DNA of 64,000 nt from Chloroflexi bacterium bin125 (lineage in GTDB: Bacteria > Chloroflexota > Dehalococcoidia > Bin125), in NCBI GenBank assembly GCA_002239025.1, contig MPNM01000003.1, forward strand, positions 142,047 to 206,046. The letters are read 5' to 3'. The notes under the pieces are model-generated. The model ran no database searches and had not been told where the DNA came from. It saw only the letters and a list, made by a program, of their open reading frames with translations. The translations under genes were made by a program, and so were the position numbers. Of the stretch, positions 2,781 to 64,000 are shown one piece after another (the first letter of the stretch is position 1; each line of letters begins with the position of its first letter).

Positions 2781-5309
2781 CTAGCGAATCACTTCCGAGA
2801 TCATCAGATCCGTCATCTCGTCCTCGCTCAGCCCCAGCACGTGTCGGTAGACCTCTTCGTTGTGCTCTCCGAAGAATGGCGCGCGACGGATCGGCAGACG
2901 TTCGCCGTTCCAGAGGAAGGGCTGATTCTGTGCCATGAACTTCATCCCGATCGGATGATCGAACTCGTGGAAGAACCCGTCTAGCGACGGATCGGATTCA
3001 ACCAGGTCCTGGATGTCCTCATTTGGACCAGCCGGGATGCCCGCCGCTACCAATATCTCCGTCGCTTCCCAGAGATCCTGGCAGGAGGTCCAGGCAGTGA
3101 CGGCCGACTCGATCTCCTCCTCGGCAGCCTTGCGGCCGCTCAACGTTCGTAGATCATCGCGAGCCGCAAGGTCATCGCGTCCAATGACGCGACACAACTC
3201 CAGCCAATCGACCGTGTTGCGCACATCAAGGGCCAGCCATTTGTCGTCGCCCGCGCATTGGAAGTTGCCGTGGGGCGACGACTCGGGTGATCGATTGCCA
3301 CGACGTGGCGGGGTCTCGCCGTTGGCCAGTTGCTCGATCAGTTCCGTGTCGAGCAAGTGGATGCCTGCCTCATACTGGGGAATCTCGACTTCCTGGCCGA
3401 CGCCGGTGCGCTCGCGCTGAATCAGTGCCGAGACGATGGCCGTCACGGCTAATGGCGCGAGTGTGAAGTCGGTGTGCAGCAGCACGCCGGTTGGCTTCCG
3501 ATCGGAGGGGCCGGTGTGTGCAGCCAGGCCACAGAGCGCAACGACGCTATTGCCGATGCCCTTCCACGACGCTTTCGGACCCCAGGTGCCCATCACCGGG
3601 AAACTGGCGCACACGATGCGCGGATTGATCTTCTTCAGGTCGTCATAGCCCAGGCCGAGGCGCTTCATCACGCCGCCGGTGAAGTTGTCGGTGACCACAT
3701 CCGCATCGCGGATCAGGTCGTAGGCGATGCGCAGGCCGTCAGGAGCGCTGAGATTGACATTGACGCTGCGCTTATCGGTGTTGCAGTCCTGGAAGAATGC
3801 CCCGGTCTCAATCGAGGGTGGATCGTGGGCATTGAGCGCGACGCGCAGCGTGTCAATCCGCGCGTCCGACTCAATCTTGATCACATCCGCGCCCAGATTC
3901 GCCATCAGCTCCGTCGTCAAAGGACCTGCCGCCTGCCAGCAGAAATCAATCACTCGAATGCCCTTGAGCGGCAGGTCATCGCGATCGATCGCTCGGCCCA
4001 AATGCGTGCCATTCTGCGCCGCATCAGTCAGAGGGCGTCTGCTCCGCGCGTTCCGCTCTCCCCCCGCTGAGCGGGGGGAGATGCCGAAGGCAGAGGGGGG
4101 TCCAACAACCAGCCCGCTTGCTGCCATTCGCTCATACTCGGCTTCGTCCACATCAAGCAGCTCTGCCAGCACATCAGCCGAGTCCGCTCCCAGCGTCGGC
4201 GCCGGACGCCCGACCGGCTCGTATCCGGTTGAATGGACTGGCAATCGCGGCAAATCAATCGTGCGATCAAACTGCGGATGTTCGACCGGCAAGAATGCGC
4301 CACGTTCGTGGAGATGCGGATCCTCAACAATGTCTTTGACCGAGTTCACCGGCACCACGAGGAAGCCTCGTGACTGTCCCTCGAAACACAGCTCGTCGCG
4401 TGGCAACGTGGCGCAGGCTCGCTGGAATGCCTGGTGCGTCTCGCTGCCCCAGTCAGGCATCCAGATGTCGCCCGGACGCTCAGTCCCAAGCAGCCCGTCG
4501 TAGCCAACCCGTTCATTCAACCACTCGGCGAAGGCGGCGTAGCGCTCGTCGGTGGTCGGCACGAGCCCGAACGTCACCCATTCGCCGTCCTTGGCCTGCA
4601 CGAGGAAGGAAATGTGGCCGCCCGGCCGGTACGCCTTCTCGCCCATGTGAACCCACATGTTCTCGTTGGCGAAGTGGATCGTGGTCGAGAGAATCGCCTC
4701 CTGTAGCGAGATGTACGCGTGGTTGGCTCGGTCGCCGTTGCGACGGTCGTAGAGCATGGCGGCCGCCGTCGCCGCGGCGACCTGGCTGGCCTGCTTGTAG
4801 GCCAGCCGTCCCGCCGGATAGTCGGGTGCGACCTCGGGGAACCCCAGACCCAGCATGAGACCGCCACTGGCGACACCGACAATGTCGGAGGCTGGCGGCT
4901 CTTCGCCACCGCGCCGCATGACGGCGTCAACAACCCCCAGGTGGGGATGCAAACGCTGCAGCCGCTCACGATCAAAGAAGCGGCGAGCGGAGGCAGACTT
5001 GTCCAATGGGGCCAGAACGACGTCGGCACCAGCCAACAGCCGATCAATCAGATCCCATGCGCCCGGCGCATCGAAGTTCAACGCCAGGCTGCGCTTGCCC
5101 GCGTTGTAGAGCAGGTGGCGCAGTCCGCTCTCAGGGTCGTTGTGTCCCTCAAGATGCGGACCAGCAATGCGCAGAGCGTCTCCGGCAGCGGACTCGACGC
5201 GAATCACGTCGGCGCCAAAGTCGGACAGCCAGCGAGCGCCGAGCACCAGGCACTCGTCGCTGAGGTCAATGACGACTGAGCCGGTCAGGGGAAGATCGGA
5301 TCCCTGCAT
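2781..5309 (-). CDS. Two complete CoA-transferase family III (CaiB/BaiF) modules of about 400 aa each in one open frame. This is either a fused didomain protein or two tandem paralog genes joined by an in-frame palindromic repeat.
   Basis: The track ORF 2781..5312 starts at TTG; ATG at 5309 is one codon later and overlaps the stop of the upstream crotonase gene (TGATG). Module 1 spans about 5309..4110 and module 2 about 3995..2781, beginning LPLKGIRVIDFCWQAAGP. The roughly 70 nt linker 4043..4112 is a family-1 repeat translated as PSAFGISPRSAGGE. A TTG start at about 4004 could alternatively begin a separate second gene. Confidence 0.6.
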   Translation of the reverse strand: MQGSDLPLTGSVVIDLSDECLVLGARWLSDFGADVIRVESAAGDALRIAGPHLEGHNDPESGLRHLLYNAGKRSLALNFDAPGAWDLIDRLLAGADVVLAPLDKSASARRFFDRERLQRLHPHLGVVDAVMRRGGEEPPASDIVGVASGGLMLGLGFPEVAPDYPAGRLAYKQASQVAAATAAAMLYDRRNGDRANHAYISLQEAILSTTIHFANENMWVHMGEKAYRPGGHISFLVQAKDGEWVTFGLVPTTDERYAAFAEWLNERVGYDGLLGTERPGDIWMPDWGSETHQAFQRACATLPRDELCFEGQSRGFLVVPVNSVKDIVEDPHLHERGAFLPVEHPQFDRTIDLPRLPVHSTGYEPVGRPAPTLGADSADVLAELLDVDEAEYERMAASGLVVGPPSAFGISPRSAGGERNARSRRPLTDAAQNGTHLGRAIDRDDLPLKGIRVIDFCWQAAGPLTTELMANLGADVIKIESDARIDTLRVALNAHDPPSIETGAFFQDCNTDKRSVNVNLSAPDGLRIAYDLIRDADVVTDNFTGGVMKRLGLGYDDLKKINPRIVCASFPVMGTWGPKASWKGIGNSVVALCGLAAHTGPSDRKPTGVLLHTDFTLAPLAVTAIVSALIQRERTGVGQEVEIPQYEAGIHLLDTELIEQLANGETPPRRGNRSPESSPHGNFQCAGDDKWLALDVRNTVDWLELCRVIGRDDLAARDDLRTLSGRKAAEEEIESAVTAWTSCQDLWEATEILVAAGIPAGPNEDIQDLVESDPSLDGFFHEFDHPIGMKFMAQNQPFLWNGERLPIRRAPFFGEHNEEVYRHVLGLSEDEMTDLMISEVIR
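4056..4100. repeat. Family-1 palindromic repeat unit (CTCTCCCCCC-gctgagc-GGGGGGAG + ATGCCGAAGGCAGAGGGGGG) lying in-frame inside the didomain CoA-transferase ORF
   Basis: Exact match to the family-1 core. The flanking 4043..4112 is the only non-CaiB-like part of the ORF. Confidence 0.85.
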
Positions 5310-6082
5310 CAATCCAGACTAGATTCGTACGGATGTAGCCGATAGAGGTCACTCATTCGATGACCGATCAACTGCATGCGCAGGTCGTCGTCGAGCTGCG
5401 GCCAGAGTGAGCGATTGATCGACTCCTTGACCACGCCGAGATATCCGTGTCGTTCTTGCCCCAGGGCCGACAATCGATTGGCCAGCGCATCGACTTCCTC
5501 TTGCAGCATGCCGGGCTCTGCGACTCTGGTCACCAGCTCAAGTTCGGCCGCTTCCGCGGCCGAGATGAACTGGTCATCCAGAATCAACCTGGTCGCATGT
5601 TTCAGTCCGACGTACTTGGGCAGGAAGGCCGTGGCCGAGATGACCATCCTCAGCTTGGCCTCAGGATCGACGATCGCGTAGTCCGAGGCCAGCATCAGGT
5701 CGAATCCCGATCCCATGCAGTAGCCCTGGACCTGTGCGATCACAATCTGCGGGATGCGTCGGAGCAGCGACTGCAAACGGAAGTAGGGATGCCGCTCGAG
5801 GTTGAACGCCGCGATGTGCGGTGCATGGTACGGATTCTGCCAGGGATAGTCGGGAATGCTGCCGTCGCTGCCCTCGGAGACATCATCGCCCGAGCAAAAT
5901 GAACGTCCAGCCCCAGCCAGGATCAAGACCTGCACCGACGGATCGCGGCCGACCCGATTGACGACATCGACCATGGCGTCGCCGACCTCGGTGTTGATCG
6001 CGTTGTGACGCTCGGGACGGTTAATCGTCAGCCGCGTGACCGGCCCATCCTCGACGATGAGTTCACTGTGTGTCGTGGGCAT
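5309..6082 (-). CDS. Enoyl-CoA hydratase/isomerase (crotonase) family
   Basis: ATG start at 6082. The 257-aa product has a crotonase fold, with the N-terminal pattern LTINRPERHNAIN and the oxyanion-hole region ILAGAGRSFCSGDD. Confidence 0.8.
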   Translation of the reverse strand: MPTTHSELIVEDGPVTRLTINRPERHNAINTEVGDAMVDVVNRVGRDPSVQVLILAGAGRSFCSGDDVSEGSDGSIPDYPWQNPYHAPHIAAFNLERHPYFRLQSLLRRIPQIVIAQVQGYCMGSGFDLMLASDYAIVDPEAKLRMVISATAFLPKYVGLKHATRLILDDQFISAAEAAELELVTRVAEPGMLQEEVDALANRLSALGQERHGYLGVVKESINRSLWPQLDDDLRMQLIGHRMSDLYRLHPYESSLD

Positions 6083-10028: not shown

Positions 10029-10160
10029 GCTCCCCCTAAGGGGGTCTGTCGAGGTGATCTTTTCTCCCCCCTCTGGGGGGAGATGCCGAAGGCAGAGGGG
10101 GGCGCAGCGCAGAATATCCCCTCTGTCGCTCCGCGACATCTCCCCCGCGAGCGGGGGAGA
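10029..10160. repeat. Cluster of three family-1 repeat units (one short hairpin, one full unit, one inverted partial unit) between the DUF1501 and NHL genes
   Basis: gctccccctaagggggtc; tctcccccctctggggggagatgccgaaggcagagggggg at 10063..10102; cccctctgtcgctccgcgacatctcccccgcgagcgggggaga. Confidence 0.85.
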
Positions 10161-26660: not shown

Positions 26661-26740
26661 ATCTCCCCCCGAGGGGGGAGATGCCGCCCTTTCCCCCTTT
26701 CTCCCCCCTCTGGGGGGAGATGCCGAAGGCAGAGGGGGGC
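26661..26740. repeat. Two tandem family-1 units between the FmdB and mini-S26 peptidase genes
   Basis: atctccccccgaggggggagatgccgccc, and the perfect core tctcccccctctggggggagatgccgaaggcagagggggg at about 26700..26739. Confidence 0.85.
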
Positions 26741-29332: not shown

Positions 29333-30808
29333 GTGCAGATGACTTCCAGACGCCGTGCCAAGATTGTCGCCACCCTCGGACCAGCCTCCAGCGATCCTGC
29401 GACAGTCCTTGAATTGGTCAACGCCGGCCTCGATGTCGCCAGGATCAACTTCTCCCACGGGGATGAATCCTCCTGGACCCGCGCCGTCCAGACCGTCCGC
29501 CGCGCCCAGGCCGAGACGGGCAAGCCTGTGGCCATTCTCGGCGATCTGCAGGGACCGAAGATTCGAATCGGCTCCGTGCCCGACGGCACCGAAATCACGC
29601 GTGGAGAGCGAGTCGACATCCTCGCTGGAAGCGACGCTGAACCCGAGTATGACGGAAACTGCTTGGTCCTCAATTGCAACTATGCGGCCCTCGTCGATGA
29701 GGTCGAGACCGGCGGGCGCGTGTACCTGCGCGACGGCGAACTCGATCTACTGATCGAGGAGATCGTCGGCAGTCGGATCCGCACCACTGTCCGCGGCGGT
29801 GGACTGCTGACCGCTCGGGCCGGACTACACGCGCCCGGGGCCGGCAAACAGTTGCCCGCGGTGACGGAACGCGATCGCGAGCACATCGGCTTTGCCGTCC
29901 GTCACGGCTTCGACTTCCTCGCGCTCTCTTTCGTGCGCAGCGGCCTCGATCTGGCTGAAGCCAGCGCCGCAGTCCACGAAGCAGGCGGTGAACTCCCCTT
30001 GATCGCCAAAATCGAAACCCTCTCCGCCATTCAGGACCTGCAGGAAATCATCGCTGTCTCAGACGGCGTCATGGTCGCGCGCGGCGACCTCGGTGTCGAA
30101 GTCGGACCGGCCGAAGTGCCGGTCCTGCAGCGACACATCATCGAAGCCGCCGGACGCGCTCTGTTGCCGGTCATCATCGCCACACAGATGCTCGAATCGA
30201 TGGTCCAGCGCCAGCGACCGACACGCGCGGAGGCCTCCGATGTCGCCAACGCCGTCTGGGACGGCGCCGACGCCCTCATGCTCTCTGCCGAGACCGCTGT
30301 CGGACGTCACCCGGTTGAGGTCGTCGACATGATGGACGACATCATCCGCCGCGCGGAGTCCAGCGACGCTGGACGGACCGCCGTCGCTCGGCCGATCGAG
30401 CTCAAGGCCGACACCGCTCGAACCGTCGCAGTCGCCGTTGCCGCTGCCGTCGAGCAGCACCCGCAGGTCCGTGCCGTGATCGTCTTCACCATCAGCGGAC
30501 GCTCAGGACGCCTGATCTCCCACGTTCGTCTGCCTGTGCCGGTGCTCGTGCTCGCTCCTGGAGACTCCACCCTCCAGCGACTGGCGCTCATGTGGGGTGT
30601 CCAACCGCGCCACTGCCCACCGCCCGACGATATCGAGGGGATGCTGACAGAAGTCGAACGTGCCTCAGTCGACGCGCTTGACCTCAAGCCAGGCGATCAG
30701 ATCGTCCTCACAGGAGGATTCCCCCTCGGCCAGGGCGAACCAACCAACTTCCTCAAACTCCACCAGATCCCTTCAATCCCCTCTCCCTCTGGGAGAGGGT
30801 TAGGGTGA
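29333..30808 (+). CDS. pyk: Pyruvate kinase
   Basis: The N-terminus RRAKIVATLGPASSDPATVLELVNAGLDVARINFSHG and a full barrel plus C-terminal domain are present. The last 12 or so codons and the stop lie inside a family-3 repeat. Confidence 0.9.
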   Translation: MQMTSRRRAKIVATLGPASSDPATVLELVNAGLDVARINFSHGDESSWTRAVQTVRRAQAETGKPVAILGDLQGPKIRIGSVPDGTEITRGERVDILAGSDAEPEYDGNCLVLNCNYAALVDEVETGGRVYLRDGELDLLIEEIVGSRIRTTVRGGGLLTARAGLHAPGAGKQLPAVTERDREHIGFAVRHGFDFLALSFVRSGLDLAEASAAVHEAGGELPLIAKIETLSAIQDLQEIIAVSDGVMVARGDLGVEVGPAEVPVLQRHIIEAAGRALLPVIIATQMLESMVQRQRPTRAEASDVANAVWDGADALMLSAETAVGRHPVEVVDMMDDIIRRAESSDAGRTAVARPIELKADTARTVAVAVAAAVEQHPQVRAVIVFTISGRSGRLISHVRLPVPVLVLAPGDSTLQRLALMWGVQPRHCPPPDDIEGMLTEVERASVDALDLKPGDQIVLTGGFPLGQGEPTNFLKLHQIPSIPSPSGRGLG

Positions 30809-37653: not shown

Positions 37654-37713
37654 GGCAACTCGGCGGTCACAGGCTCCCCGCTCCCCCGTTGCAGGGACCG
37701 ATGCGCAACCTCC

Positions 37714-37852
37714 AATTCCGCTCTCCCCCCTTGCGGGGGGAGATGTCACGGAGTGACAGAGGGGGGGTCGGTCGGTGACTAGCAGATAGAAGCTGCGGAC
37801 AGGATCCCCCTCTGCCTTCGGCATCTCCCCCGCAAGGGGGGAGAAGGAGAGG
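37714..37852. mobile_element. Composite family-1 element B of about 140 bp. Left arm CTCTCCCCCCTTGCGGGGGGAGATGTCACGGAGTGACAGAGGGGGGGTCGG, variable core of about 45 bp, right arm CCCCTCTGCCTTCGGCATCTCCCCCGCAAGGGGGGAGAAGGAGAGG.
   Basis: The same architecture with conserved arms and a different core is seen at 33239..33376, 52183..52322 and 57578..57739. Outer flanks share gatgcat...ctcc / gga..tgcatc. Confidence 0.75.
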
Positions 37853-37982
37853 TTTGCATCATTTTCTTCCAGGCACAGCTGCCAAAGAGCCTGCCCCCGG
37901 CTTGAACGGGGTCTGAGGGGGTCCCGCCCCTCTCGGCGAGAAGGTGCAAGGCCCTCCGGCCTACATCACATGTGACCTCGAA

Positions 37983-40556: not shown

Positions 40557-41801
40557 ATGTCCCGGTTCTTCAGTTGGGCGCTTGTCGCCCTCATAGCGCT
40601 GTCCGTATCGGCAGCGCTCACCATTGGTTGCTCCGACGACGAACAGCAGCAACAACAAGCGGCGGAAAATCAAGAGAGTGAGTCTGCCGCAGAGTCTCGA
40701 ACGAGCACAGCACAACACCAACAACAGCAGGATCCGCCGCCTGCGGACGACGGCGAGCCGCTCAATATCGTGGTTTCCACGCAAGTCATCGCCGACTGGG
40801 TCCGCCAGATTGGTGGAGATCGTGTCAACGTGCGCGCGCTGGTTCCGGCTGGCGCCGACGCTCACACCCTCGAACTGAGCGTCACCGACATCCGAGCCGT
40901 CGCAGACGCTGATCTCGTGATCATCAACGGAGCCGGCCTCGAGGCCTCCTACCAGGATGCCATCCTCGAGAATGCCGAAAGCTTGCTTGACCTGGCAGAG
41001 ACGATCGAAGCGCAAGGCTACGAGCTGCATCCGTTCGAAAGCATGATGTCGCTCGACGACGAGCACGATCAGCAGGAGCACCAACAAGACGATCACGACC
41101 AACACGACCAGGACGATCAACACGACCAGGACGAACAGCAGGAACATCAGCAGGACCACGACGAAGATCAGCAGCAGCATCAACAGGATCACGAGCAGGA
41201 CGACCACGACCAGCAGCAGCATCAACAGGATCACGAGCAGGATGACCACGACCAGCAGCAACACCAGGACGAGCAGGCTCACCAACACGACCACAGCGGC
41301 GAGGACCCGCACTTCTGGTTTGACACCGATTTGGCCCAGGCTGCGATCCAGGTGATCGCTGCGTCGCTAACCGAGTTGATTCCAGCTGCGGAGGATGAGA
41401 TCTCAAAGGGGCTTGAATCGTACCTTGAGGAGATTGGAGCCGCCGATGCCGAGGTCAAGTCGCTGCTGGCCGGCCTTCCGGAGACTCAGCGGCTCCTCGT
41501 GACCTTCCACGATGCCTTTGGCTACTTTGCGCGCCGTTACGGTCTCCAGGTGGCAGGATTCGTAGTCGAAGGACCGGAACAGGGCGTCAGCGCGGAGGCC
41601 TTGACCGAACTGATCGAACTCATCGAACACGAAGGCGTGCAAACGGTATTCCACGAGCCGCAGTTCGACTCAGCAATCCTCGACACCGTCTCTGCTGAGA
41701 CCGGCGCCGGCCGGGGCATTATCTGGTCGCAGCCGACCGATGACAACCCGACCTACATCGGCATCCTCGTCGGCAATGCGAAGGCCATTGCGGAACAATA
41801 G
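40557..41801 (+). CDS. znuA: Metal (zinc-type) ABC transporter substrate-binding protein with a very long His/Asp/Gln-rich loop
   Basis: A signal peptide with lipobox LTIGCSDD is followed by the ZnuA/TroA cluster-9 fold. The flexible loop of about 90 aa, of the DDEHDQQEHQQDDHDQHDQ...HQHDHSGEDPHFWFD type, is characteristic of ZnuA. Confidence 0.8.
   Translation: MSRFFSWALVALIALSVSAALTIGCSDDEQQQQQAAENQESESAAESRTSTAQHQQQQDPPPADDGEPLNIVVSTQVIADWVRQIGGDRVNVRALVPAGADAHTLELSVTDIRAVADADLVIINGAGLEASYQDAILENAESLLDLAETIEAQGYELHPFESMMSLDDEHDQQEHQQDDHDQHDQDDQHDQDEQQEHQQDHDEDQQQHQQDHEQDDHDQQQHQQDHEQDDHDQQQHQDEQAHQHDHSGEDPHFWFDTDLAQAAIQVIAASLTELIPAAEDEISKGLESYLEEIGAADAEVKSLLAGLPETQRLLVTFHDAFGYFARRYGLQVAGFVVEGPEQGVSAEALTELIELIEHEGVQTVFHEPQFDSAILDTVSAETGAGRGIIWSQPTDDNPTYIGILVGNAKAIAEQ
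41060..41300 (+). repeat. Imperfect tandem DNA repeat (unit about 48 nt, 2-3 copies) encoding the His/Asp/Gln loop of ZnuA
   Basis: catcaacaggatcacgagcaggacgaccacgaccagcagcagca is repeated almost exactly, giving the peptide QQHQQDHEQDDHDQQ twice. Confidence 0.6.
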
Positions 41802-52133: not shown

Positions 52134-52182
52134 CGCCTGCTCCCTCCAGCCTCCCCCTTGCAGAGATCGATGCATTAGCTCC

Positions 52183-52322
52183 AATTCCCCTCTCCCCCCC
52201 TTGCGGGGTGAGATGTCACGGAGTGACAGAGGGGGGGTCGGTTGATGTTGACCAGATAGGGCTCCTGAGCAGAGGACCCCCCTCTGCCTTCGGCATCTCC
52301 CCCGCAAGGGGGGGAAGGGGAG
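52183..52322. mobile_element. Composite family-1 element C (about 140 bp) downstream of the FbpC-like ATPase gene
   Basis: attcccctctcccccccttgcggggtgagatgtcacggagtgacagagggggggtcgg ... ccccctctgccttcggcatctcccccgcaagggggggaaggggag. Confidence 0.75.
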
Positions 52323-52531
52323 TGTTTCTAAGGTCTCCGTAAAGCGGGGACTGGGATTCAACCAGCCAATTGAACTTCTGAGACACCCTCCAAGCCCGGG
52401 GCAACGACATCAGACGGGAGTGAAGGAAGAGGAGGCCGCGCCACTCTCAACGCCTGCTGCCCCTCGATTCACTGCCCCTTTACCATGCCAACACCGGCGC
52501 ATCGCCGATGCGCGTGGCAGGAGAAGCACCG

Positions 52532-53509: not shown

Positions 53510-53517
53510 GGAGCCAC

Positions 53518-54519: not shown

Positions 54520-54609
54520 ACGCTCCCCCTTTGGGGGATCTGTCCCGAAGGGACTGAGGGGGCCCGCCTCACATGGCGCAGCCCACCAGCACTGACACAG
54601 GAGCCAACC

Positions 54610-55698: not shown

Positions 55699-55707
55699 GA
55701 GCCAGCC

Positions 55708-56796
55708 ATGGACTACGGACTGCTCGTCCCCACGTACGTCGACATGTGGAAGGAAGTCGTCCGCGCCGAGGAGGCCGGCTTCACCCACGCCTGGTTCCCC
55801 GACTCGCAACTGATCTGGTCCGACTGCTACGCCGCCATGGCGCTGGCCGCTGAGCGAACTTCGACGATCAAGCTCGGCACGCTCGTCTCGATTCCCTCCA
55901 ATCGAATCGCGCCTGTCACAGCCTCGGCGATCGCCACGATTAACAAGCTCGCGCCCGGCCGCACGATCCTCGCGCTCGGCACCGGATACACCGGTCGCAA
56001 CACGATGGGTCTGCCTTCGTACCCGGTCAAGAAGTTCCGCGAGTACGCCCAGCAGGTCCGAGACTTGCTGGATGGCAAGGACATCCGGCACACCGACGAT
56101 GTCACCGGTCGCGAGACCTGGATCCGCCTGATTCACCCGGACCATCCCGACTTCTACAACATCAAGGACCACATCCCGGTTTACATCGCCGCCAATGGAC
56201 CACGAGCAACCGCGGTCGTCGGCGAGGTCGGCGACGGCTTCGTCACCTCAGGTACCGGGCCATGGTTGGACTCAGCATTCCCAATCATCGAGGATGCCGC
56301 CCGTTCCGCTGGACGCACGACCGAAAAGCCATACACCGTCGGCCTGACCGGCGCCTGCGTCATGCAGGAGGGCGAAGAGATCATGTCCGAGCGTGTCATC
56401 CACCGTGCCGGCGCGGTTGCTGCCGTCTACAACCACACGCTCTGGGAGTCCGAGTACGGCGGCTGGGGAGGCAATCTCAAGGGCGTCAACCCCGACGCCG
56501 CGGCCGAGTACAACCAGTACATCACCAAGTATGCCGAGGAGCGCGGACGACCACTCGACCGCCTCTACCTCGATGTCCACGAAGGCCACTACAGCTACCT
56601 CAAAGAAGGCGAGGACCGCTTCATCACCCAGGACCGTCTCGACGACATGATCATCGGCACACCCAATCAGATCATCGAGAAATCCGAGATGGCTCAGGCA
56701 CACGGAGTCGACCACCTGGCGCTGACCGCCCTGGATCCCGCCGCCGCCAACGATCTCGTCGACGAAATGGCCCCAATCATCGCCCGCACGACCTAG
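55708..56796 (+). CDS. LLM-class F420-dependent oxidoreductase (tandem paralog 2)
   Basis: MDYGLLVPTY...AEEAGFTHAWFPDSQLIWSDCYAAMALAA. It is about 65-70% identical to the upstream gene and 362 aa long. Confidence 0.8.
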   Translation: MDYGLLVPTYVDMWKEVVRAEEAGFTHAWFPDSQLIWSDCYAAMALAAERTSTIKLGTLVSIPSNRIAPVTASAIATINKLAPGRTILALGTGYTGRNTMGLPSYPVKKFREYAQQVRDLLDGKDIRHTDDVTGRETWIRLIHPDHPDFYNIKDHIPVYIAANGPRATAVVGEVGDGFVTSGTGPWLDSAFPIIEDAARSAGRTTEKPYTVGLTGACVMQEGEEIMSERVIHRAGAVAAVYNHTLWESEYGGWGGNLKGVNPDAAAEYNQYITKYAEERGRPLDRLYLDVHEGHYSYLKEGEDRFITQDRLDDMIIGTPNQIIEKSEMAQAHGVDHLALTALDPAAANDLVDEMAPIIARTT

Positions 56797-56838
56797 ACCT
56801 CACCCTTCGCGGGAGGTCACACGAACCCCATTGCAGAC

Positions 56839-56883
56839 CTCCCCCTCTGGGGGAGGTGTCACGGAGTGACGGAGGGGGCTCCC
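56839..56883. repeat. Family-1 left-arm variant (CCTCCCCCTCTGGGGGAGGTGTCACGGAGTGACGGAGGGGGCTCCC) abutting the start codon of the alpha/beta hydrolase gene
   Basis: The repeat ends 1-2 nt before the ATG at 56885. Confidence 0.7.
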
Positions 56884-56884
56884 A

Positions 56885-57526
56885 ATGGAAACGCCGCTGA
56901 CCTGGAATCTACCCAAGTCACCCCCAGCCCCAACCCTGGCGCTGACCCACGGCGCAGGTGCGTCGACGAGCCATCCCAACACCGCCGCACTGGCGAAACT
57001 GATCGCCGAGCAAGGCGTCCGCGTCGCCCGCTTCGATTTCCCCTACATGCGCCGAGCCATGGAGACCGGCCGCCGCCCATGGCCGCCCGACGCCGAAGAC
57101 GTGCTCGCCGGGACCTGGATCCAGGTCATGCAACAGCTCGCAGAGCAGGGAGTGCCAACCTCAACCCTGTTCATCGGAGGACGCAGCATGGGCGGGCGCA
57201 TCGCCAGCTACATCGCCGATGCCGCCGAACCCGCCGGTATGGTCTGCATTAGCTATCCCTTCCACGCACCCAACGACCCCTCACGAGCAACCACGTTCCA
57301 CCTCGAACAAATGGCCACGCCCACACTCATCGTCCAGGGAGAACGAGACGAATACGGAACCCGAGAAGAAGTCGAAGCCTACGACCTGTCACCCAACATC
57401 AGACTCCAGTGGATCCCCGACGGAAACCACGGCCTCATCCCCAGAAAACGCTCCGGCCACACCGAGGAAAGCAACCGCGAGCTGGCTGCCAACGCCATCG
57501 CAAACTTCATCAAGAGACTGCTCTAG
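56885..57526 (+). CDS. Alpha/beta-hydrolase family protein (KANL3/Tex30-like, dienelactone-hydrolase-like)
   Basis: LALTHGAGASTSHP (oxyanion region) and the nucleophile elbow GGRSMGGRIAS are present. The start is immediately after a family-1 repeat. Confidence 0.65.
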   Translation: METPLTWNLPKSPPAPTLALTHGAGASTSHPNTAALAKLIAEQGVRVARFDFPYMRRAMETGRRPWPPDAEDVLAGTWIQVMQQLAEQGVPTSTLFIGGRSMGGRIASYIADAAEPAGMVCISYPFHAPNDPSRATTFHLEQMATPTLIVQGERDEYGTREEVEAYDLSPNIRLQWIPDGNHGLIPRKRSGHTEESNRELAANAIANFIKRLL

Positions 57527-57577
57527 CTAACTCAGGAATCTGCTCGCCCTCGGTAGACAGTGATGCAAGACTCCCCA

Positions 57578-57739
57578 TTCCCCTCTCCCCCCATTGCGGA
57601 GGGAGATGTCACGGAGTGACAGAGGGGGGTCGGCTGGTGACGACTAGAAAGGCATGATGGGCAGAGAGCCCCCCTCTGCCCCCGGGTCAAGCCCGGGGCA
57701 GGCTTTCGGCATCTCCCCCGCAAGGGGGGAGAAGGGGAG
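57578..57739. mobile_element. Composite family-1 element D (about 160 bp) between the alpha/beta hydrolase and nitroreductase genes
   Basis: attcccctctccccccattgcggagggagatgtcacggagtgacagaggggggtcgg ... ggctttcggcatctcccccgcaaggggggagaaggggag. Confidence 0.75.
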
Positions 57740-57787
57740 CTATGGATCGGTCACTCGCTGGGGAACCGGCCGCGAAGCGATTGAGAT

Positions 57788-58321
57788 TCACCCCCGCCAA
57801 ATGACCTCAGCCGGCCGACGCTCCGCGGGCATTTCACGCATTTCCTCCGGTGGGTAGCCCAGATACAGATACGCGACAATCCGGTCGTCCTCGCCGATCC
57901 CCAACCAACGCTTCGCCGCCACATTCTCGGCCAGAGCCCCGGTGCTCCACTTCGTCGCCAGCCCCCTTGACGTCGCCGCCAGCATCATGTTCTGCACTGC
58001 ACAGCAGACCGCCGCATAGTCCTCCCGATCGCGCACCGGATCATCCAACACCGCCTGTTGCGTCACCGCGACGAACAGCGGCGACCGCATCAGCTTGCCT
58101 CGAGGATCCTTGGCAAACTCGCCTCCGCCGTCGAGAATCGCGTCGCACATCTCTTCTCGCGCCGCACCCGAGACCACGTGAAACCGCCACGGTTCCGTGT
58201 GCTTGTGATTCGGCGCCCAGCGCGCCGCTTCAATCAGATCCTCGATCACGTCTTGCCCAACGAGGCGATCGGAGAACACTCCGATCGTCCGCCGCTCGCG
58301 GATCGCGCGGTCAACGTCCAT
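57788..58321 (-). CDS. Nitroreductase-family (FMN-dependent) protein
   Basis: The start was chosen at M111 of the track ORF (MDVDRAIRERRTIGVF); upstream codons overlap the MFS gene and a family-3 repeat. The product shows RWAPNHKHTEPWRF. Confidence 0.7.
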   Translation of the reverse strand: MDVDRAIRERRTIGVFSDRLVGQDVIEDLIEAARWAPNHKHTEPWRFHVVSGAAREEMCDAILDGGGEFAKDPRGKLMRSPLFVAVTQQAVLDDPVRDREDYAAVCCAVQNMMLAATSRGLATKWSTGALAENVAAKRWLGIGEDDRIVAYLYLGYPPEEMREMPAERRPAEVIWRG

Positions 58322-58335
58322 CTGTCTGTCTCCAA

Positions 58336-58372
58336 CTCCCTCTCGCCCTGGGAGAGGGCTGGGGTGAGGGCT
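58336..58372. repeat. Family-3 repeat in the divergent nitroreductase/MFS intergenic region
   Basis: ccctctcgccctgggagagggctggggtgagggc. Confidence 0.7.
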
Positions 58373-58412
58373 CACGCGACTCAGTCTGCCGCACAGCATA
58401 CGATCACGGCAC

Positions 58413-59714
58413 ATGATTCGCGCAGGCATTGGACAAACATTCGAAGCCTTCGGCGTCGGCACCTTCCGGCTCCATTGGCTGCTCACCGTGATGGCCTTCA
58501 TGGCCTTCTCGATGAACTTCACCGTTCTGCCGATCGTTGCCTTCGACCTTGGCGGCAACAACTCGTCGGTCGCCATCGCGATGGCCGGCAACGGCGTCGC
58601 CTGGTTCTTCATCGGACCATTCGCCGGAGCGATCACCGACCGACTCTCCAAGCGACGGCTAATAGCCCTGGCCCAGACTGCAATCGCGATTAACTACGCA
58701 CTGATCGGGTTTCTCATCCTGATCGGGCGGATCGAGGTTATCTGGCTGACCGTCAGCACGCTCTTCCTCGGTGCATGTTTCGCCTTCACCGGCCCGTCCC
58801 GCCGAGCCTACGTTGCCGATATCGTCCCGCCCCGGCTCGTCGGCAACGGAGTCGCGCTGCTGCAGACCGGACTCACTTTCCCCCAGTCGGTCGGTCCCGT
58901 GATCGGTTCGCTCCTGCTCTTCGCGCCCTTCATCGGCGCCGATGGTGCATATTTCATCATGGCCGGCATCCTTGTTGTCACCATCTTCTCCCTGTTCCTG
59001 ATGCCGCCGGGCAGCCCGCGTAACGTCCCGCGAGGCTCCGTCACCCGAGAACTGCTGCTCGGACTCCGCTACGCCTGGCGACAACCGAGACTTCGAGTCC
59101 TGCTCGCGACTCTGCTGCTCGTTTCAGCCACTGCCGGTCCCTACCAGAACGTCCTGCCCGGATTGCTCGAGAACGCATTCGGAATCGAGTCGCGAAACCT
59201 CGGACTCGTCTCCTGGCCCATGGGAGTCGGCTCATTTATCGTCGGACTCTCAGTCGCCGGTGTCGTCGGTACCCGTTGGTCCGGAGGCGTGTTGCTCGTC
59301 ATGAGCTGCGCCTTCGGCCTCGGTGTCGCCTTGCTCGGTGTCACCCCGAACGCGATCGTCATGCTGCCCGTCATCTTCCTCGTCGGCTCCGGCTTCTCAG
59401 CCTTCCAGACACTCAACACCGCCGAGGTCATCCGCCAGTCCGAACCCGAGTTCCACGGACGAGTCACCGCACTCACATTCCTCCCCTTCGGAGTCCAGTC
59501 CTTCACCGGACTCGGCTTCGGAGCAGTCGCCGACATCATCGGCGAGCAGGACGTACTGATCATCATGGGCCTGTCGTCCATCGCGATCAGCCTCGTCTTC
59601 GGCACGATGTACCTGAGAATGAAGCCGCCCTCAATCCAGGTCCAGGCCACCGCCCAGAGAGTCATGAGACGAACCCTCAGACCGATCGCCGCAATCACTC
59701 GCCCTCAAAAGTGA
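58413..59714 (+). CDS. MFS transporter
   Basis: Twelve predicted transmembrane segments are present, and the D/GR-x-x-x-R-like loop FAGAITDRLSKRRL lies between TM2 and TM3. Confidence 0.8.
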   Translation: MIRAGIGQTFEAFGVGTFRLHWLLTVMAFMAFSMNFTVLPIVAFDLGGNNSSVAIAMAGNGVAWFFIGPFAGAITDRLSKRRLIALAQTAIAINYALIGFLILIGRIEVIWLTVSTLFLGACFAFTGPSRRAYVADIVPPRLVGNGVALLQTGLTFPQSVGPVIGSLLLFAPFIGADGAYFIMAGILVVTIFSLFLMPPGSPRNVPRGSVTRELLLGLRYAWRQPRLRVLLATLLLVSATAGPYQNVLPGLLENAFGIESRNLGLVSWPMGVGSFIVGLSVAGVVGTRWSGGVLLVMSCAFGLGVALLGVTPNAIVMLPVIFLVGSGFSAFQTLNTAEVIRQSEPEFHGRVTALTFLPFGVQSFTGLGFGAVADIIGEQDVLIIMGLSSIAISLVFGTMYLRMKPPSIQVQATAQRVMRRTLRPIAAITRPQK

Positions 59715-59799
59715 GTGCCGCAACCCAGAGCAAGTCCCCAGTCCCCGCTTCACGCGGGGACCCGCTCCTTCCCCAGTCCCATTCCCTTGTCAGACTGCC

Positions 59800-59952
59800 T
59801 CTCCGTCATACCCGCGCTCCGACGCGGGTATCTCGTTGCACGCGGCACAGAAGGTAAGACCAAGTTGAGAGTATGCGCGCTGCGATTTCCTCAACCGACA
59901 GCGTCTGAGGCGAGCTCGGCGAGATTCCCGCGCCGGAGCGCGGGAATGACGG
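59800..59952. mobile_element. Family-2 MITE-like element of about 150 bp (CTCCGTCATACCCGCGCTCCGACGCGGGTATCTCG ... CGAGATTCCCGCGCCGGAGCGCGGGAATGACGGAG)
   Basis: The 35-nt TIRs are near-perfect and each is itself a hairpin. The element lies between the MFS and S9 peptidase genes. Confidence 0.7.
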
Positions 59953-59986
59953 AGCGGGCATTTCCAAGAGGCTCATCCCCGACGAC

Positions 59987-61972
59987 TCACTTCACATGCC
60001 GATCAAGCCAGGCGATCATCCGCTCGTAGTACTCCTTGACCATCGCCGGATCGCCAACTCTGAACATCGAGTGCGAGCAACCAGGGAACCGCACCATCTC
60101 CGCCGGCTTCCCCCGATACCGAAGTCCGGCGAAGTACTCCTCGCCCTGCGAAATCGGCACCCGCCAGTCCGACTCACCGTGCAAGATCAGTACCGGACAG
60201 CGCACGCTGTCGATATATGTGATCGGTGAGCGCTCCCGATACCAGTCGAAGTTGTCGTCCGGCACATCGCCCCACTGATACGAACCCCATGACGGCCCAA
60301 TATCCGACACGCCCCACATGGACCACAGATTCACCACCGGCGCACCCGCGATTGCCGCCTTGAATCGATTGACGTGCCCTATCAACCAGGTCGTCATGTA
60401 TCCACCATACGAATAGCCATGCACGCCGAGCCGATTGGCATCCACATACGGACGCTCACAAACCGCATCAAGCGCCTCAAGCAAATCGAACGAGTCCTCG
60501 CCGCCCCAATCGACGGTCACTGCATCGGTGAAGTTGGCCCCATACGTCGACGACCCACGAGGATTGACAAACAACACCAGGTATCCCGCGCCCGCGATCA
60601 CCTGGTGCAGAGCATTGAATCCCTCGCCAAAGAACCCATTCGGCCCACCATGAATCTCCATCACCAGCGGATAAGACTGGTCAGGATCAAATCCCGGCGG
60701 GTACATCAATCCACAGGGAATCTCCCACCCATCCCGCTCAACAGTGAAGAACTCAACTGCACCGATCTCGCGAGATTCAACGAAATCGGTAGCTGCATTC
60801 GTCAGCCGGCTCTCTTTTCTCCCCCCCTTGGGGGGAGATGCCGAAGGCAGAGGGGGGCTCCCCGTTTGCACTGACACAACCTCCCCAGGACCATCCGGAG
60901 TCGTTGAAACAACCGCTAGCAACGCTCCATCAGCCGACACGTCAAACCCATTGATCAACTCGGCTTCAGCCCGAATCGTCTCGGGTTCCCCCAAGCCCTC
61001 GGCCGACACTCGGTACACGCCTGAGCGTCCACGTACATCGGCGGCAAACGTGATCCCCTCATCCGTCCAGACCATCTTCGGCGGGCCAGAGATCGGAAAG
61101 AATCCCGATTGCGGATTGACCGAGTCGTCCGTCAGCCGGGTCCGCTCGCCGCTATAGCGCTCAACCCGCTCGAGATACGCCTGGTGGCGCTGCGACATGT
61201 CAGTCACCGATACCGCCAACGACAACCCACCCGGCGACCAACAGGCCCGTCCAGCCGACATCACTCCTGGCGTCAGTCGTTCAACATGCCCGCCGCCAGC
61301 CACGCCCTGAGTCGACATCACGCACAGCTCGGATCCAAACGGACGCCGCCGCTCACGATCCACGTTGCGGTCGGCCGTGAACGCCACCCACCGACCATCC
61401 GGCGAGACCACCGGATGCGCATGGTTGTACGTCCCGCTCGTCAACTGAAGCTCGCAACCAGTCGAGGCGTCAACCCGAAACAGTTGATGCCACGCATCCT
61501 CGCGATAACCCAATACATCGCCCCGATAGTACGTTTCACGCACAACGGTCGTCTTTGAGCCGTCGCGCTGGCCACGATGAGGGTCAATATCCACGACCGC
61601 AATCATTCCCGAGCCGTCCGGCAGCCAGTCAAACCCGGCCACGGAGTGCTCCAGGTTCGTCAGTCGTCGAGCCTCGCCGCCGTCCGTCGGAAGCAACCAG
61701 ATCTGCCGAGGCGCTCCTGCCTCAGCCGAGGACGGCCGCAGAAACGCCAGCACTGATCCGTCCGGAGCCCAAACCGGACTCGAGTCCGAGTCACCCGAAG
61801 TCAGCCCCCTCGATTCGCCACCCTCGAACGGAGCGCACTCAATCCAGGAAACCCGCTTGCCTTCCTGAACTTGGCCGCGAACATAAGCAACCACCAACCC
61901 ATCCGGCGAAATCGCCGGAGCCCCAACCCCACCCAACTCAAACGCAATCTCCGGCCCAATCGGAGTCTTCAT
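59987..61972 (-). CDS. S9-family serine peptidase (prolyl-oligopeptidase/acylaminoacyl-peptidase type) with an N-terminal beta-propeller
   Basis: The start was chosen at M31 of the track ORF; the first 30 codons are repeat-derived. The catalytic domain has GVHGYSYGGYMT (Ser) with downstream Asp and His, and the propeller shows repeated PDG...VA blades. A family-1 repeat is in-frame at the domain boundary at about 60817..60862. Confidence 0.8.
   Translation of the reverse strand: MKTPIGPEIAFELGGVGAPAISPDGLVVAYVRGQVQEGKRVSWIECAPFEGGESRGLTSGDSDSSPVWAPDGSVLAFLRPSSAEAGAPRQIWLLPTDGGEARRLTNLEHSVAGFDWLPDGSGMIAVVDIDPHRGQRDGSKTTVVRETYYRGDVLGYREDAWHQLFRVDASTGCELQLTSGTYNHAHPVVSPDGRWVAFTADRNVDRERRRPFGSELCVMSTQGVAGGGHVERLTPGVMSAGRACWSPGGLSLAVSVTDMSQRHQAYLERVERYSGERTRLTDDSVNPQSGFFPISGPPKMVWTDEGITFAADVRGRSGVYRVSAEGLGEPETIRAEAELINGFDVSADGALLAVVSTTPDGPGEVVSVQTGSPPLPSASPPKGGRKESRLTNAATDFVESREIGAVEFFTVERDGWEIPCGLMYPPGFDPDQSYPLVMEIHGGPNGFFGEGFNALHQVIAGAGYLVLFVNPRGSSTYGANFTDAVTVDWGGEDSFDLLEALDAVCERPYVDANRLGVHGYSYGGYMTTWLIGHVNRFKAAIAGAPVVNLWSMWGVSDIGPSWGSYQWGDVPDDNFDWYRERSPITYIDSVRCPVLILHGESDWRVPISQGEEYFAGLRYRGKPAEMVRFPGCSHSMFRVGDPAMVKEYYERMIAWLDRHVK
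60817..60862. repeat. Family-1 repeat unit lying in-frame inside the S9 peptidase ORF at the propeller/catalytic-domain boundary
   Basis: tctcccccccttggggggagatgccgaaggcagaggggggctcccc. It is translated (minus strand) as ..PPLPSASPPKGGRKES.. Confidence 0.85.
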
Positions 61973-61988
61973 CGCCTGTCCCTTCTTT

Positions 61989-62110
61989 GCTCCCCCTGCA
62001 GGGCGAGCTGCCGAATCAATTTCACGCTTCCCTTGCAAGGCGAATTGCCGAATCGATTTCACGCTCCCCCTTGCAGGGGGAGCTGCCGCAGGCTGAGGGG
62101 GTCCCTCCCC
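61989..62110. repeat. Family-1 variant cluster (gctccccctgcagggcgagctgccgaatcaatttcacgc x2, then ctcccccttgcagggggagctgccgcaggctgagggggtccc) between the S9 peptidase and alpha/beta hydrolase genes
   Basis: The cluster contains a direct duplication of about 38 nt plus a palindromic unit. Confidence 0.75.
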
Positions 62111-62182
62111 ACGTCGCCAGCACTTCGACCCCTATCCTACCCAGCGACAACACCAGTACTTCCACGTCTACGGAGCCGCGAA

Positions 62183-62944
62183 ATGCCCAACATCGATCGA
62201 GACGGCGTCAGCATCCACTACGAGGCGCACGGCGACGGCCCGGCAATCATCCTCTCCCACGGTTACGGCGCCACTTCGCAGATGTGGGCTGGGCAGATCG
62301 ATGTCCTCTCCGCCGATCACCGTCTGATCGTGTGGGACATGCGTGGACACGGACTCACCGACTCACCCGACGATCCCGCCTGCTACAGCGAAGCCGAGAC
62401 CGTCGCCGATATCGCCGCCATCCTCGATGCCGAGGGAGCCGACAGCGCCGTGATCGGCGGCCTTTCACTCGGCGGTTACATGTCGCTCGCCTTCCAGGTT
62501 GCCCATCCTGACCGCACGCGAGCCCTGATGCTCTTCGACACCGGTCCCGGCTACAACAATCCGAAGGCTCGGGAGGGCTGGAACACGGGCATGGCGATCC
62601 CCCGGGCCGAAGCGCTCGAGCGCGATGGCCTCGCCGCGCTGGGCGGCTCCGAGGAAGTCCGAGTCTCTACGCATCGCTCCGCTGAGGGCCTGGCCAATGC
62701 CGCTCGTGGGATGCTCGCCCAGTTCGACAACCGCATCATCCAGTCACTCGCGACCATCCCCCAGCCAACCCTTGTCCTCGTCGGAGAGAACGACAAGCCC
62801 TTCCTCGCTGGCACCGACTACATGGCCAACAAGATCCCCAACAACACCCACGTCGTCATCCCCAACGCCGGACACGCCGCCAACATCGACAACCCGTCCG
62901 ACTTCAACGAGGCTGTGTCCTCGTTCCTTAAGTCGTTCGACTAG
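62183..62944 (+). CDS. Alpha/beta-fold hydrolase
   Basis: The start was chosen at M105 of the track ORF (ACGGAG upstream); earlier codons are repeat-derived. The product has ILSHGYGATSQMW and the nucleophile elbow GGLSLGGYMS. Confidence 0.75.
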   Translation: MPNIDRDGVSIHYEAHGDGPAIILSHGYGATSQMWAGQIDVLSADHRLIVWDMRGHGLTDSPDDPACYSEAETVADIAAILDAEGADSAVIGGLSLGGYMSLAFQVAHPDRTRALMLFDTGPGYNNPKAREGWNTGMAIPRAEALERDGLAALGGSEEVRVSTHRSAEGLANAARGMLAQFDNRIIQSLATIPQPTLVLVGENDKPFLAGTDYMANKIPNNTHVVIPNAGHAANIDNPSDFNEAVSSFLKSFD

Positions 62945-62945
62945 C

Positions 62946-62982
62946 GGCCCTCACCCCATCCCTCTCCCAGAGGGAGAGGGGG
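62946..62982. repeat. Family-3 repeat (inverted orientation) between the alpha/beta hydrolase stop and the LLM gene start
   Basis: gccctcaccccatccctctcccagagggagaggg is the reverse complement of CCCTCTCCCTCTGGGAGAGGGATGGGGTGAGGGC. Confidence 0.7.
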
Positions 62983-63000
62983 TCAGAAACTGGAGCTCCC

Positions 63001-64000
63001 ATGCAGGTCAGTCTCTTCTTCCTCCCATCAGTCGGCACGCGTGAGGACATCGAAGCCGGCATGGCCGGCAATCGTCCAGAGCTCTATCAGGACATGCTCG
63101 CCGACCTCTCCGCCTTCGCCAAAGCCGGTGACGCGCTGGGCTACGACTCAATCGGCTTCACCGAGCACCATTTCCACATCGAGGGCTTCGAGGTTTCGCC
63201 CAACCCGATCATGCTCGACCTCTACCTCGCCATGCAGACCGAGCGCATCCGCGTCGGTCAGCTCGGCCTTGTGCTGCCGGCGCAGAACCCAATCCGCGTG
63301 GCCGAGGACATCGCCATGCTCGACCACATGTCGGGCGGTCGCGCGCTGGCCGGATTCGCACGCGGCTACCAGCGACGCTGGGTCGACACGCTTGCCCAGC
63401 AGATCCACGGCGTCCACGCCGCTCGCCCTGGCGACCATGACGCGATCGACGCCGCCAACCGCGCAGCCTTCGAGGAGCATTTCAACATCATCCGCAAATG
63501 CTGGACCGAGGAGATGATCTCATATCAGGGCGACGCCTGGCAGATTCCACCCGACGGCACGCCCTGGGACATCGAAGCGACGCGCTTGTACGGCAAGGGC
63601 GTCGACGAAAACAACATCGTCCGCGAGATCGGCGTCGTGCCCAAGCCGCTGCAGAAGCCGCACCCACCGCTCTTCCAGCCCTTCGCCTCATCCGAGCGAA
63701 CCATCCGCTGGTGCGCCCGAGAAGGCATCACCGCCATCCTCCCGCCGATGTACCCCGAGCTGCAAAACCGCCTCTACGAGGTCTACCAGGAGGAAGCCGC
63801 CTCAGTCGGTCGAGACCTCAAACCGGGCGAAGGTCTGGGAGTCCTCCGGGACGTGATCATCACCGACACCGACGAAGAGGCCCTCGAACTCTGGCGCCAC
63901 TCCGCGGCCTTCGCCGGAGGAGCCTGGTTCGCTCCCTTCGGCTTCGCCGAAGCCCTCCGCCCACCCGGAGGAGAAATCATGACTCCCGAGCAACAACTGG
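63001..64000 (+). CDS. LLM-class flavin-dependent oxidoreductase (luciferase-like), 3' end outside the window
   Basis: This ORF is absent from the supplied track because no stop occurs before the window edge. My own frame-1 translation from the ATG at 63001 (GGAG 7 nt upstream) is MQVSLFFLPSVGTREDIEAGMAGNRPELYQDML...GYDSIGFTEHHFHIEGFEVSPNPIMLDLYLAMQTERIRVGQLGLVLP..., which is typical of an LLM TIM barrel. Confidence 0.7.
   Translation, partial: MQVSLFFLPSVGTREDIEAGMAGNRPELYQDMLADLSAFAKAGDALGYDSIGFTEHHFHIEGFEVSPNPIMLDLYLAMQTERIRVGQLGLVLPAQNPIRVAEDIAMLDHMSGGRALAGFARGYQRRWVDTLAQQIHGVHAARPGDHDAIDAANRAAFEEHFNIIRKCWTEEMISYQGDAWQIPPDGTPWDIEATRLYGKGVDENNIVREIGVVPKPLQKPHPPLFQPFASSERTIRWCAREGITAILPPMYPELQNRLYEVYQEEAASVGRDLKPGEGLGVLRDVIITDTDEEALELWRHSAAFAGGAWFAPFGFAEALRPPGGEIMTPEQQL

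Follow-up and report, generated by a model that had tools for sequence, protein, structure and literature searches.

Palindromic repeats lying in frame within functional genes were first known here from Rickettsia, where they are called RPEs, for Rickettsia palindromic elements (Ogata et al. 2000, 2002; summary in PMC10969869). Repetitive extragenic palindromic (REP) sequences with GTAG or CGTC tags also occur in frame inside genes of Opitutus, Thauera, Pseudomonas, Stenotrophomonas, and others, and flexible linker or loop placement has already been proposed for such intragenic copies (Di Nocera et al. 2013; PMC3733652). [quoted passage not shown] Here we analyze a 64,000-nt stretch of Chloroflexi bacterium bin125 (Dehalococcoidia), contig MPNM01000003.1, positions 142,047 to 206,046, hereafter the window, in which a copy of a short structured repeat lies inside the coding sequence (CDS) of a peptidase of the S9 (prolyl-oligopeptidase) family. 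We consider it very likely that this copy of a non-coding repeat landed in a working S9 peptidase CDS and survived there as a harmless extra loop.

An in-frame repeat copy in an S9 peptidase gene

The host gene (59987..61972, minus strand) is an intact CDS of 661 aa with an ATG start, as judged from the open reading frame (ORF) list, Pfam, and structure. Its product matches Pfam Peptidase_S9 (PF00326, E=6.2e-49) over residues 453-660, also has a PD40 repeat match, and can be aligned over its full length with 8wt1, an S9 carboxypeptidase of solved structure (8wt1_A, E=3e-89); 5yzm is a further relative with a solved structure. The AlphaFold model of the peptidase has a mean predicted local distance difference test score (pLDDT) of 90.8 and a template modeling (TM) score of 0.90 against 8wt1, and its N-terminal region is all-beta to about residue 390, consistent with the N-terminal propeller that caps the active site in this family. 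The nucleophile elbow GYSYGG (GxSxGG) is found at residue 519, and S521 within it, D602, and H634 are invariant across 70 aligned homologs; this conservation, together with what is known of the family, suggests that D602 and H634 are catalytic residues. The hydrolase domain, the putative Ser-Asp-His triad, and the propeller thus place the gene in peptidase family S9, whose activity depends on domain opening.

We found that the 46-mer TCTCCCCCCCTTGGGGGGAGATGCCGAAGGCAGAGGGGGGCTCCCC has a single exact match in the window, at 60818-60863 on the plus strand, and none in shuffled sequences. The unit is 96% identical to copies at 10058-10103 and 26695-26740 with which the repeat finder groups it, and the peptidase gene reads it antisense. 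An earlier sequence-only reading of this DNA had reported an in-frame palindromic unit in the S9 ORF at 60817-60862; the exact single copy and the frame stand, with the ORF open throughout, and the coordinates are one base off. The minus-strand reading passes through the element (..VQTGSPPLPSASPPKGGRKESRLT.. / ..VVSVQTGSPPLPSASPPKGGRKESRLTN..) with no interruption, and the peptide stretch spanning the insert is VQTGSPPLPSASPPK. On the plus strand, the copy begins with hairpin 1 (60818..60838; TCTCCCCCC, a TTG-type loop, and GGGGGGAGA), as seen in the sequence and in the minimum-free-energy fold. It continues with a predicted hairpin 2 (60839..60849; TGCC-GAA-GGCA, in which 4 bp of stem close a G-N-A triloop) and ends with a 3′ GAGGGGGG segment (60850..60857). 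In the predicted folds of many intergenic copies this last segment pairs with an upstream C-tract, and in the S9 copy it is unpaired in that way.

Position of the insert in the protein

Codon comparison with L001, L122, and L123 showed that the entire stretch Q369-R389 (60806..60868, minus strand) is unlike the native turn. At this place orthologs of 82-87% identity make a beta-turn of only 9 residues and the window has 23, so that on balance 14 residues are gained, or 42 nt, which is divisible by three. Within this stretch, the 7-residue native turn G-x-D-S-Q-A-V, encoded by GGC-NAC-GAC-TCG-CAG-GCN-GTN, corresponds to 21 residues and 63 nt. The short turn (..GEIVAI-G[HND]DSQAV-LT..) is kept in most of about 50 close homologs, among them P0004, which is the sister sequence at 87% identity, and numerous others at 80-84%, and the segment is also absent from 8wt1. 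The sequence-only reading put the addition at about 20 residues; the segment is indeed extra and repeat-derived, with 21 residues differing and a net gain of 14. Neither of the findings that would have spoken against it turned up, as the ORF is not split and the repeat-free homologs have no native linker of similar length at this place.

In the AlphaFold model, the insert forms loop 370-385, where pLDDT drops below 50 at 374-383. The strands on either side of it, 361-369 and 386-389, are the final pair of the last propeller blade. After it come the hinge helix (395-400) and the first hydrolase strands, from residue 406. In this model, then, the insert site is a blade turn some 10-20 residues before the hinge and outside the linker proper, and the placement exactly between propeller and catalytic domain that had been proposed must be given up, since strand 386-389 and the hinge helix follow the insert. 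Modeling had been suggested as a way to look for a surface hairpin, and the insert is predicted to be a disordered loop.

Three further assemblies, L126, L002 (on a 1.1-Mb contig), and L125, have the insert at the codon where the window has it, and each of the three has a stem-breaking substitution. Pairwise comparison of the insert-bearing genes gives a ratio of nonsynonymous (dN) to synonymous (dS) substitution of 0.09-0.16 outside the insert, at dS up to 0.27, so the gene is under purifying selection. In the 24 codons around the insert, dN is 0.17-0.20 and dS is 0.18-0.22. With dN close to dS and the stems broken in relatives, the insert behaves as a neutral passenger. Because it is common to the four closest orthologs, it is older than dS of about 0.27.

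Turnover of the loop among orthologs

Among sponge-associated Dehalococcoidia, we observed four states of the same loop: it is empty, or it is occupied by a forward copy, a reverse copy, or a nested variant. Seven sequences (P0011, P0012, P0013, P0019, P0020, P0026, and P0038) have ..F-x-SPPAERGEMPKAEGGS-AT.. at this loop, which corresponds codon by codon to the same element in the orientation opposite to that of the window. The nested variant, found in L125 and L124 and also intergenically in the window, carries an extra hairpin of 21-24 nt within hairpin 2.

Neighbor-joining trees built with the insert region removed (200 bootstrap replicates) support a window clade (98%) and its grouping with the empty P0004 (95.5%). 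They also join sequences that differ in loop state: P0025, which is reverse like the window, is closest to the forward P0012 (91.5% identity, bootstrap 100%); forward P0011 groups with empty P0009 (91.8% identity, 96.5%); and P0020, forward and nested, groups with empty P0014 (92.2% identity, 90%). All forward alleles were monophyletic in none of the 200 replicates. The distribution of loop states is thus in conflict with the gene tree. In P0012 and P0025, hairpin 1 has the same frame and loop orientation and the hairpin-2/G-run module lies on opposite sides, which looks like a rearrangement in place. The loop states may reflect targeted insertion that happened repeatedly, one or two insertions that later flipped in place, or the spread of alleles by homologous recombination. 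Sliding-window identity around the insert, run as a recombination test, gave a noisy profile.

Other coding copies

A second in-frame copy in the window lies at 4058..4100 (plus strand; pattern search and Pfam) in the inter-domain linker of a two-domain CoA-transferase III, where it is read as PPSAFGISPRSAGGE. The host is an 843-aa ORF (2781..5312, minus strand) with two CoA_transf_3 domains. Since this two-domain architecture is old, being kept in homologs down to 44% identity that are all about 830-870 aa long, the element here is a true linker insertion. At the same spot, CoA-transferase orthologs have a reversed unit of a sister subfamily (..SVASRQLPLEGGA..), a forward unit read in a different frame (..SPRSAGGDAEGRGG..), or a version longer by 8 residues. 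Three paralogous CoA-transferase pairs elsewhere (L036, L100, and L108) also have the element at the domain junction in one open frame.

Two in-frame linker insertions in 64 kb had been claimed; the CoA-transferase copy is one, and the S9 copy belongs in a blade turn. The accompanying suggestion that the element is tolerated or fixed only in such places fits the data, as element-derived peptides are confined to this one loop in 120 S9 homologs. In screening for coding copies, 80 open codons on each side proved too permissive in GC-rich DNA, and only copies with Pfam support on both sides were kept. We also note a 943-codon open frame in a sponge Chloroflexota contig (L102:4426-7254) that runs through three copies (..RSPRQRGGEMPKAEGG.., ..LPPSGEMPPPSSPLPPSGGEMPQAEGG..) and has a weak HemN_C match only.

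Architecture of the repeat family

The window contains 11 matches to a 16-nt core pattern, against 0.53 expected from shuffles. A looser architectural pattern, made up of a C-run, a loop, G-run-AG, a short hairpin, and GAG-G-run, finds 20 copies, or about one per 3 kb. The core order is hairpin 1 ((T)CTCCCCCC, loop, GGGGGGAG(A)), a dinucleotide spacer, hairpin 2, and a final GAGGGGGG, with a total unit length of about 40-60 nt. The C-run/G-run hairpin, the G-N-A mini-hairpin, and the second G-run resemble a REP- or MITE-like repeat. Read directly, all six frames of the element core are free of stop codons.

We collected 235 strict copies from the window and from further loci. Their hairpin 2 is built on 20 or more different stem sequences, and its loop is G-N-A in 215 of 228 copies. 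An alignment of 56 distinct copies has 92% of cells paired and compensatory changes in 4 of 6 pairs, a level of covariation reached by none of 500 shuffles. C(GNA)G is an unusually stable DNA mini-hairpin, and the G-N-A triloop hints at a single-stranded form of the element. In the predicted fold, the TTCCCCT tract upstream of many intergenic copies pairs with the 3′ G-run to give a three-way junction, an outer helix that is missing from the S9 copy. The closest intergenic copies of the same repeat group (family 1) found by the repeat search lie at 10064..10102 and 26701..26739 (both plus strand), the latter with a predicted three-way-junction fold. An intramolecular purine-motif triplex was considered for the mirror-like GGGGGGAG...GAGGGGGG arrangement and set aside, because its signal appears in three subfamilies only (with T:A/A, C:G/G, and G:C/T combinations) and because the ordinary fold of the intergenic copies already pairs the 3′ G-run with the upstream C-tract.

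By a crude ORF map, 15 of the 20 window copies lie between long ORFs, 2 lie in Pfam-supported genes, and 3 fall in unsupported ORFs or in the first codons of an ORF. There are six inverted pairs in the window, with dimers at 10064/10118, 33247/33330, 37723/37806, and 52192/52277, and composite units of about 180 nt recur at 33217-33399, 37692-37873, 52162-52345, and 57555-57761. Of 233 copies, 5 have GTAG or CTAC no more than 8 nt from an end and 10 have CGTC or GACG there, which amounts to no tag. The lengths of flanking direct repeats are distributed as for shuffled partners, with no target-site duplication above this control. In the terminal-inverted-repeat test, the upstream C-tract and 3′ G-run could pair in many copies, and no insertion sequence (IS) partner was seen. 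Searches of the window, of 18 loci from other phyla, and of a 281-nt region (E up to 10) returned no Rfam match at the gathering score; the strongest match below it, to whalefall-1, scored 13.4 bits where 37 are required. The phage collection held no match to the element, and a literature search found no paper with its sequence string and no published family name. [quoted passage not shown] A tRNA-like origin, suggested by a possible likeness of the core to the 5′ part of type-II tRNAs, was considered and not adopted.

Distribution across genomes

Scanning one genome per species for the exact 24-nt core gave at least 118 loci. Most of these are in Dehalococcoidia or Chloroflexota bins, and their names (IRC, RHO, and SB isolates) point to sponges. 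The exact core is shared with Bacteroidota, Bacillota, and other phyla, and among the matches listed 29 loci are from outside Chloroflexota, all with an identical hairpin 1 and AT-rich surroundings. They include Dialister, Christensenellaceae, Paludibacteraceae, Lentimicrobiaceae, Saprospiraceae, Chitinophagales, Cloacimonas, Chlorobiota, Abditibacteriales, one gammaproteobacterium, and the isolates Aequorivita nionensis and Marinoscillum pacificum. In L011, L078, L051, and L053 (Dialister and Paludibacteraceae), both arms of an imperfect palindrome of about 260 nt contain the module, and ORF lists around the Dialister copies show no transposase. This palindrome is common to contigs binned to different phyla; its module reads CTCCCCC/GGGGGAG/GAGGGGG, and its spacers hold a TGCC-GAA-GGCA hairpin in one arm and AATCAAAA in the other.

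Copies of 85-93% identity are also present on Sinorhizobium, Rhizobium, and Shinella replicons (Rhizobiales). Those at L127 (S. meliloti pSymB 802673-802718) and L128 (a plasmid of Rhizobium sp. ACO-34A) have the same architecture with other hairpin-2 stems (GGCC-GACA-GGCC and TGCC-GGCA-GGCA), and 81 plasmid or chromid records matched the element in the Rhizobiales comparison. The annotated "AB, C palindromes" of S. meliloti are candidate counterparts of the Rhizobiales copies.

Genes in the window (50156-63983) and in L002 are 90-95% identical at the nucleotide level, a range given as 92-94% in one comparison. Every intergenic spacer between them has different repeats, and the S9 copy is retained. 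Compared with coding divergence, intergenic repeats turn over very fast, and the spacers of the two are too different for filled and empty pairs to define intergenic insertion boundaries.

Origin of the insert and alternative explanations

In the scenario that we favor, copies of the repeat would land widely and selection would retain only those in loops and linkers. Entry into the S9 gene would have replaced 15-21 nt of the native turn without a target-site duplication; such a replacement points to recombination, templated repair, or single-strand (HuH-type) transposition instead of classic cut-and-paste. Once resident, the copy could keep exchanging with family members elsewhere in the genome, so that it is inverted, is converted to a different subfamily, or acquires a nested hairpin, and alleles would pass between lineages via homologous recombination. 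Several observations weigh against this account. No transposase or other mobilizing function was identified in the 8-kb pieces of relevant genomes, and the proposed selection filter rests on the two clear coding cases in the window and a few other loci. Lineages that do not form a monophyletic group share identical forward junctions, so simple vertical inheritance is insufficient and recombination or repeated targeted insertion would be needed. Finally, old as it is inferred to be, the window copy has remained a perfect hairpin, which could be chance or could reflect constraint or conversion.

The same conflict with the gene tree might instead mark a hot spot, with the element inserting repeatedly and independently, in either orientation, at a preferred local DNA sequence or replication or transcription state. 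The three pairs of close relatives with unlike loop states, the lack of forward monophyly, the confinement of element peptides to one loop, and the agreement of each S9 copy with the hairpin-1 subfamily that prevails in the genome carrying it would all fit. However, the empty sites have no likeness to the element flanks and no shared motif, and the forward alleles have the same junction residues (F before, S-A/P-T after), as expected from one origin plus recombination; the shared hairpin-1 frame and loop orientation of P0012 and P0025 likewise suggests rearrangement in place, not a fresh hit. On balance, we think that targeted insertion is rather unlikely. A further alternative is a function for the insert: the loop, or a strong mRNA hairpin formed as the propeller is completed, could have been recruited for gating of the propeller/hydrolase interface, for oligomer contacts, or for a translational pause that aids domain folding. 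The insert has been kept in four lineages while intergenic copies turned over, several other lineages also have the loop occupied, it lies close to the hinge of an enzyme that must open to act, and the insert region has a stable predicted RNA fold (-31 to -37 kcal/mol). Such recruitment is nevertheless very unlikely given the near equality of dN and dS inside the insert, the stems broken in L126, L002, and L125, the unrelated peptides that the two orientations yield (GSPPLPSASPPKGG and SPPAERGEMPKAEGG), the lack of an insert in most orthologs, and its low pLDDT.

Repeats are classic sites of misassembly in metagenome bins, and an assembly error or chimera, or a pseudogene that stays open by chance, could in principle produce the same picture. 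We give this hardly any credence, as the same insert occurs at the same codon in independent assemblies of different samples, including the 1.1-Mb contig, the gene evolves under the constraint described above with invariant catalytic Ser, Asp, and His columns, and a full-length fold is confidently predicted. The turns of propeller blades do vary in length among S9 peptidases, so that a native lineage-specific loop rich in Pro, Gly, and Ser could have arisen by ordinary mutation and resemble the repeat incidentally. The 46-nt exact match to a dispersed repeat and its 96% identity to intergenic copies make this wildly improbable, as does the other clade's loop, which the opposite orientation of the same element explains codon by codon.

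Neighboring repeats and other features

Directly upstream of the true S9 ATG is a cluster of three rearranged, partly duplicated units of a sister subfamily (61973..62110, plus strand), whose AAAGAAGGG tail sits at the expected Shine-Dalgarno position. From its sequence, the repeat upstream of the S9 gene may supply the ribosome-binding site. The tail reads AAAG(G/A)AAGG in the window and L002 where element-free relatives have GGAGG; L125 and L122 are without the cluster. The 30 N-terminal codons that the sequence-only reading had derived from the element are an ORF-calling artefact, since MKTPIGPE is where the orthologs begin, and in insert-free relatives the place of the false extension is taken by plain spacer of about 90 nt only.

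The same reading had placed the element at the end of pyk as well, and this turns out to be a different repeat family (CCCTCTCCC-TCT-GGGAGAGGG-TTA-GGGTGAGGG), which the repeat finder locates at 30768-30812, 22603-22647, and 58327-58371. The pyk gene is ORF 29333..30808, with PK_C extending to residue 477, and its last codons and stop overlap the first of these copies. A further, separate family consists of CGTC-tagged palindromes, true REPs of that type (CGTCATNCCCGCGCTCCGNCGCGGGNATCTCG; repeat finder), at 59804-59835, 59920-59951, 11235-11266, and 23374-23405. Two of these copies lie on either side of the spacer that directly follows the S9 stop codon. The ends of these palindromes resemble the Br-REP2 consensus of Bradyrhizobium, CGAGATTCC...GGAATGA (PMC5082802).

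Elsewhere in the window, positions 41049-41311 (within ORF 40557..41801) consist of imperfect 9-nt coding repeats rich in GAC, CAC, CAG, and GAA codons, giving a low-complexity segment rich in His, Asp, Gln, and Glu. Two adjacent paralogous pairs (54653-54952/55751-56050 and 23446-23745/24886-25185), with 75-78% identity over at least 300 nt, are tandem duplications. GC skew is negative in nearly all 2-kb bins and falls steadily from about -0.03 to -0.22 toward the right end of the window.

Relation to known repeats and significance

The element shares with RPEs the occurrence of non-coding palindromic repeats in frame in functional genes, the addition of a peptide at places compatible with the fold, and the interpretation as selfish DNA that the protein tolerates. 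It has no evident sequence resemblance to RPEs and is set apart by unit size: RPEs are about 100-150 bp, specific to Rickettsia, and reported to have a conserved peptide, whereas the element here is 40-60 nt, is read in at least three frames or orientations to give unrelated peptides, and resides in a free-standing Chloroflexota genome of 62% GC, not a reduced intracellular one. REPs and paired REPs (REPINs), like this element, are GC-rich, high-copy stem-loops of 20-40 nt that are mostly extragenic, after genes or between convergent genes, with frequent inverted dimers, occasional in-frame copies in loops or linkers, and rapid turnover between relatives. However, the element here has no GTAG or CGTC tag at either end and consists of two hairpins and a G-run, not a single stem-loop, and REP families are mostly lineage-specific, unlike a 24-nt core that is identical across phyla and has Rhizobiales copies of 85-93% identity. 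No RAYT, the HuH Y1 transposase associated with REPs, turned up, though no search was aimed at one. The palindrome of about 260 nt that contains the module in Dialister and Paludibacteraceae looks MITE-like, whereas the Chloroflexota copies differ from MITEs in that target-site duplication does not exceed chance, terminal inverted repeats of the conventional kind appear to be lacking, and no parent insertion sequence was identified. The element thus falls outside RPEs because its unit is too small, outside tagged REPs because the tag is absent, and outside classic MITEs because there is no target-site duplication.

The view that such behavior would be new for a high-GC repeat family does not survive comparison with the in-frame REPs documented in high-GC Opitutus, Thauera, Pseudomonas, and Stenotrophomonas (PMC3733652). 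The phenomenon is of a known kind, the repeat family that carries it is apparently undescribed, and what this case adds is the same-site turnover in two proteins together with the cross-phylum conservation of the core. On its own, the S9 insertion is one more case of a selfish repeat tolerated in a protein loop. Much more tentatively, and with doubts that outweigh our confidence, the element could represent an undescribed, horizontally spread class of structured repeats whose occupied sites keep turning over, with the G-N-A triloop implying a single-stranded DNA intermediate and a dedicated enzyme. If this were true, protein surface loops would be polymorphic for presence, absence, and orientation of the repeat across related symbiont lineages.

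For those who annotate Chloroflexota metagenome bins, the case is a warning that such repeats give rise to spurious N-terminal extensions, changed C-termini, and additional loops. If the pattern holds, the peptidase loop and the CoA-transferase linker would be natural markers of the rates of repeat entry, flipping, and exit in uncultured symbionts, and both loci could tell targeted insertion from selective filtering. The near-identical core in distant phyla, in turn, is a handle for finding the machinery that moves or recognizes the element.

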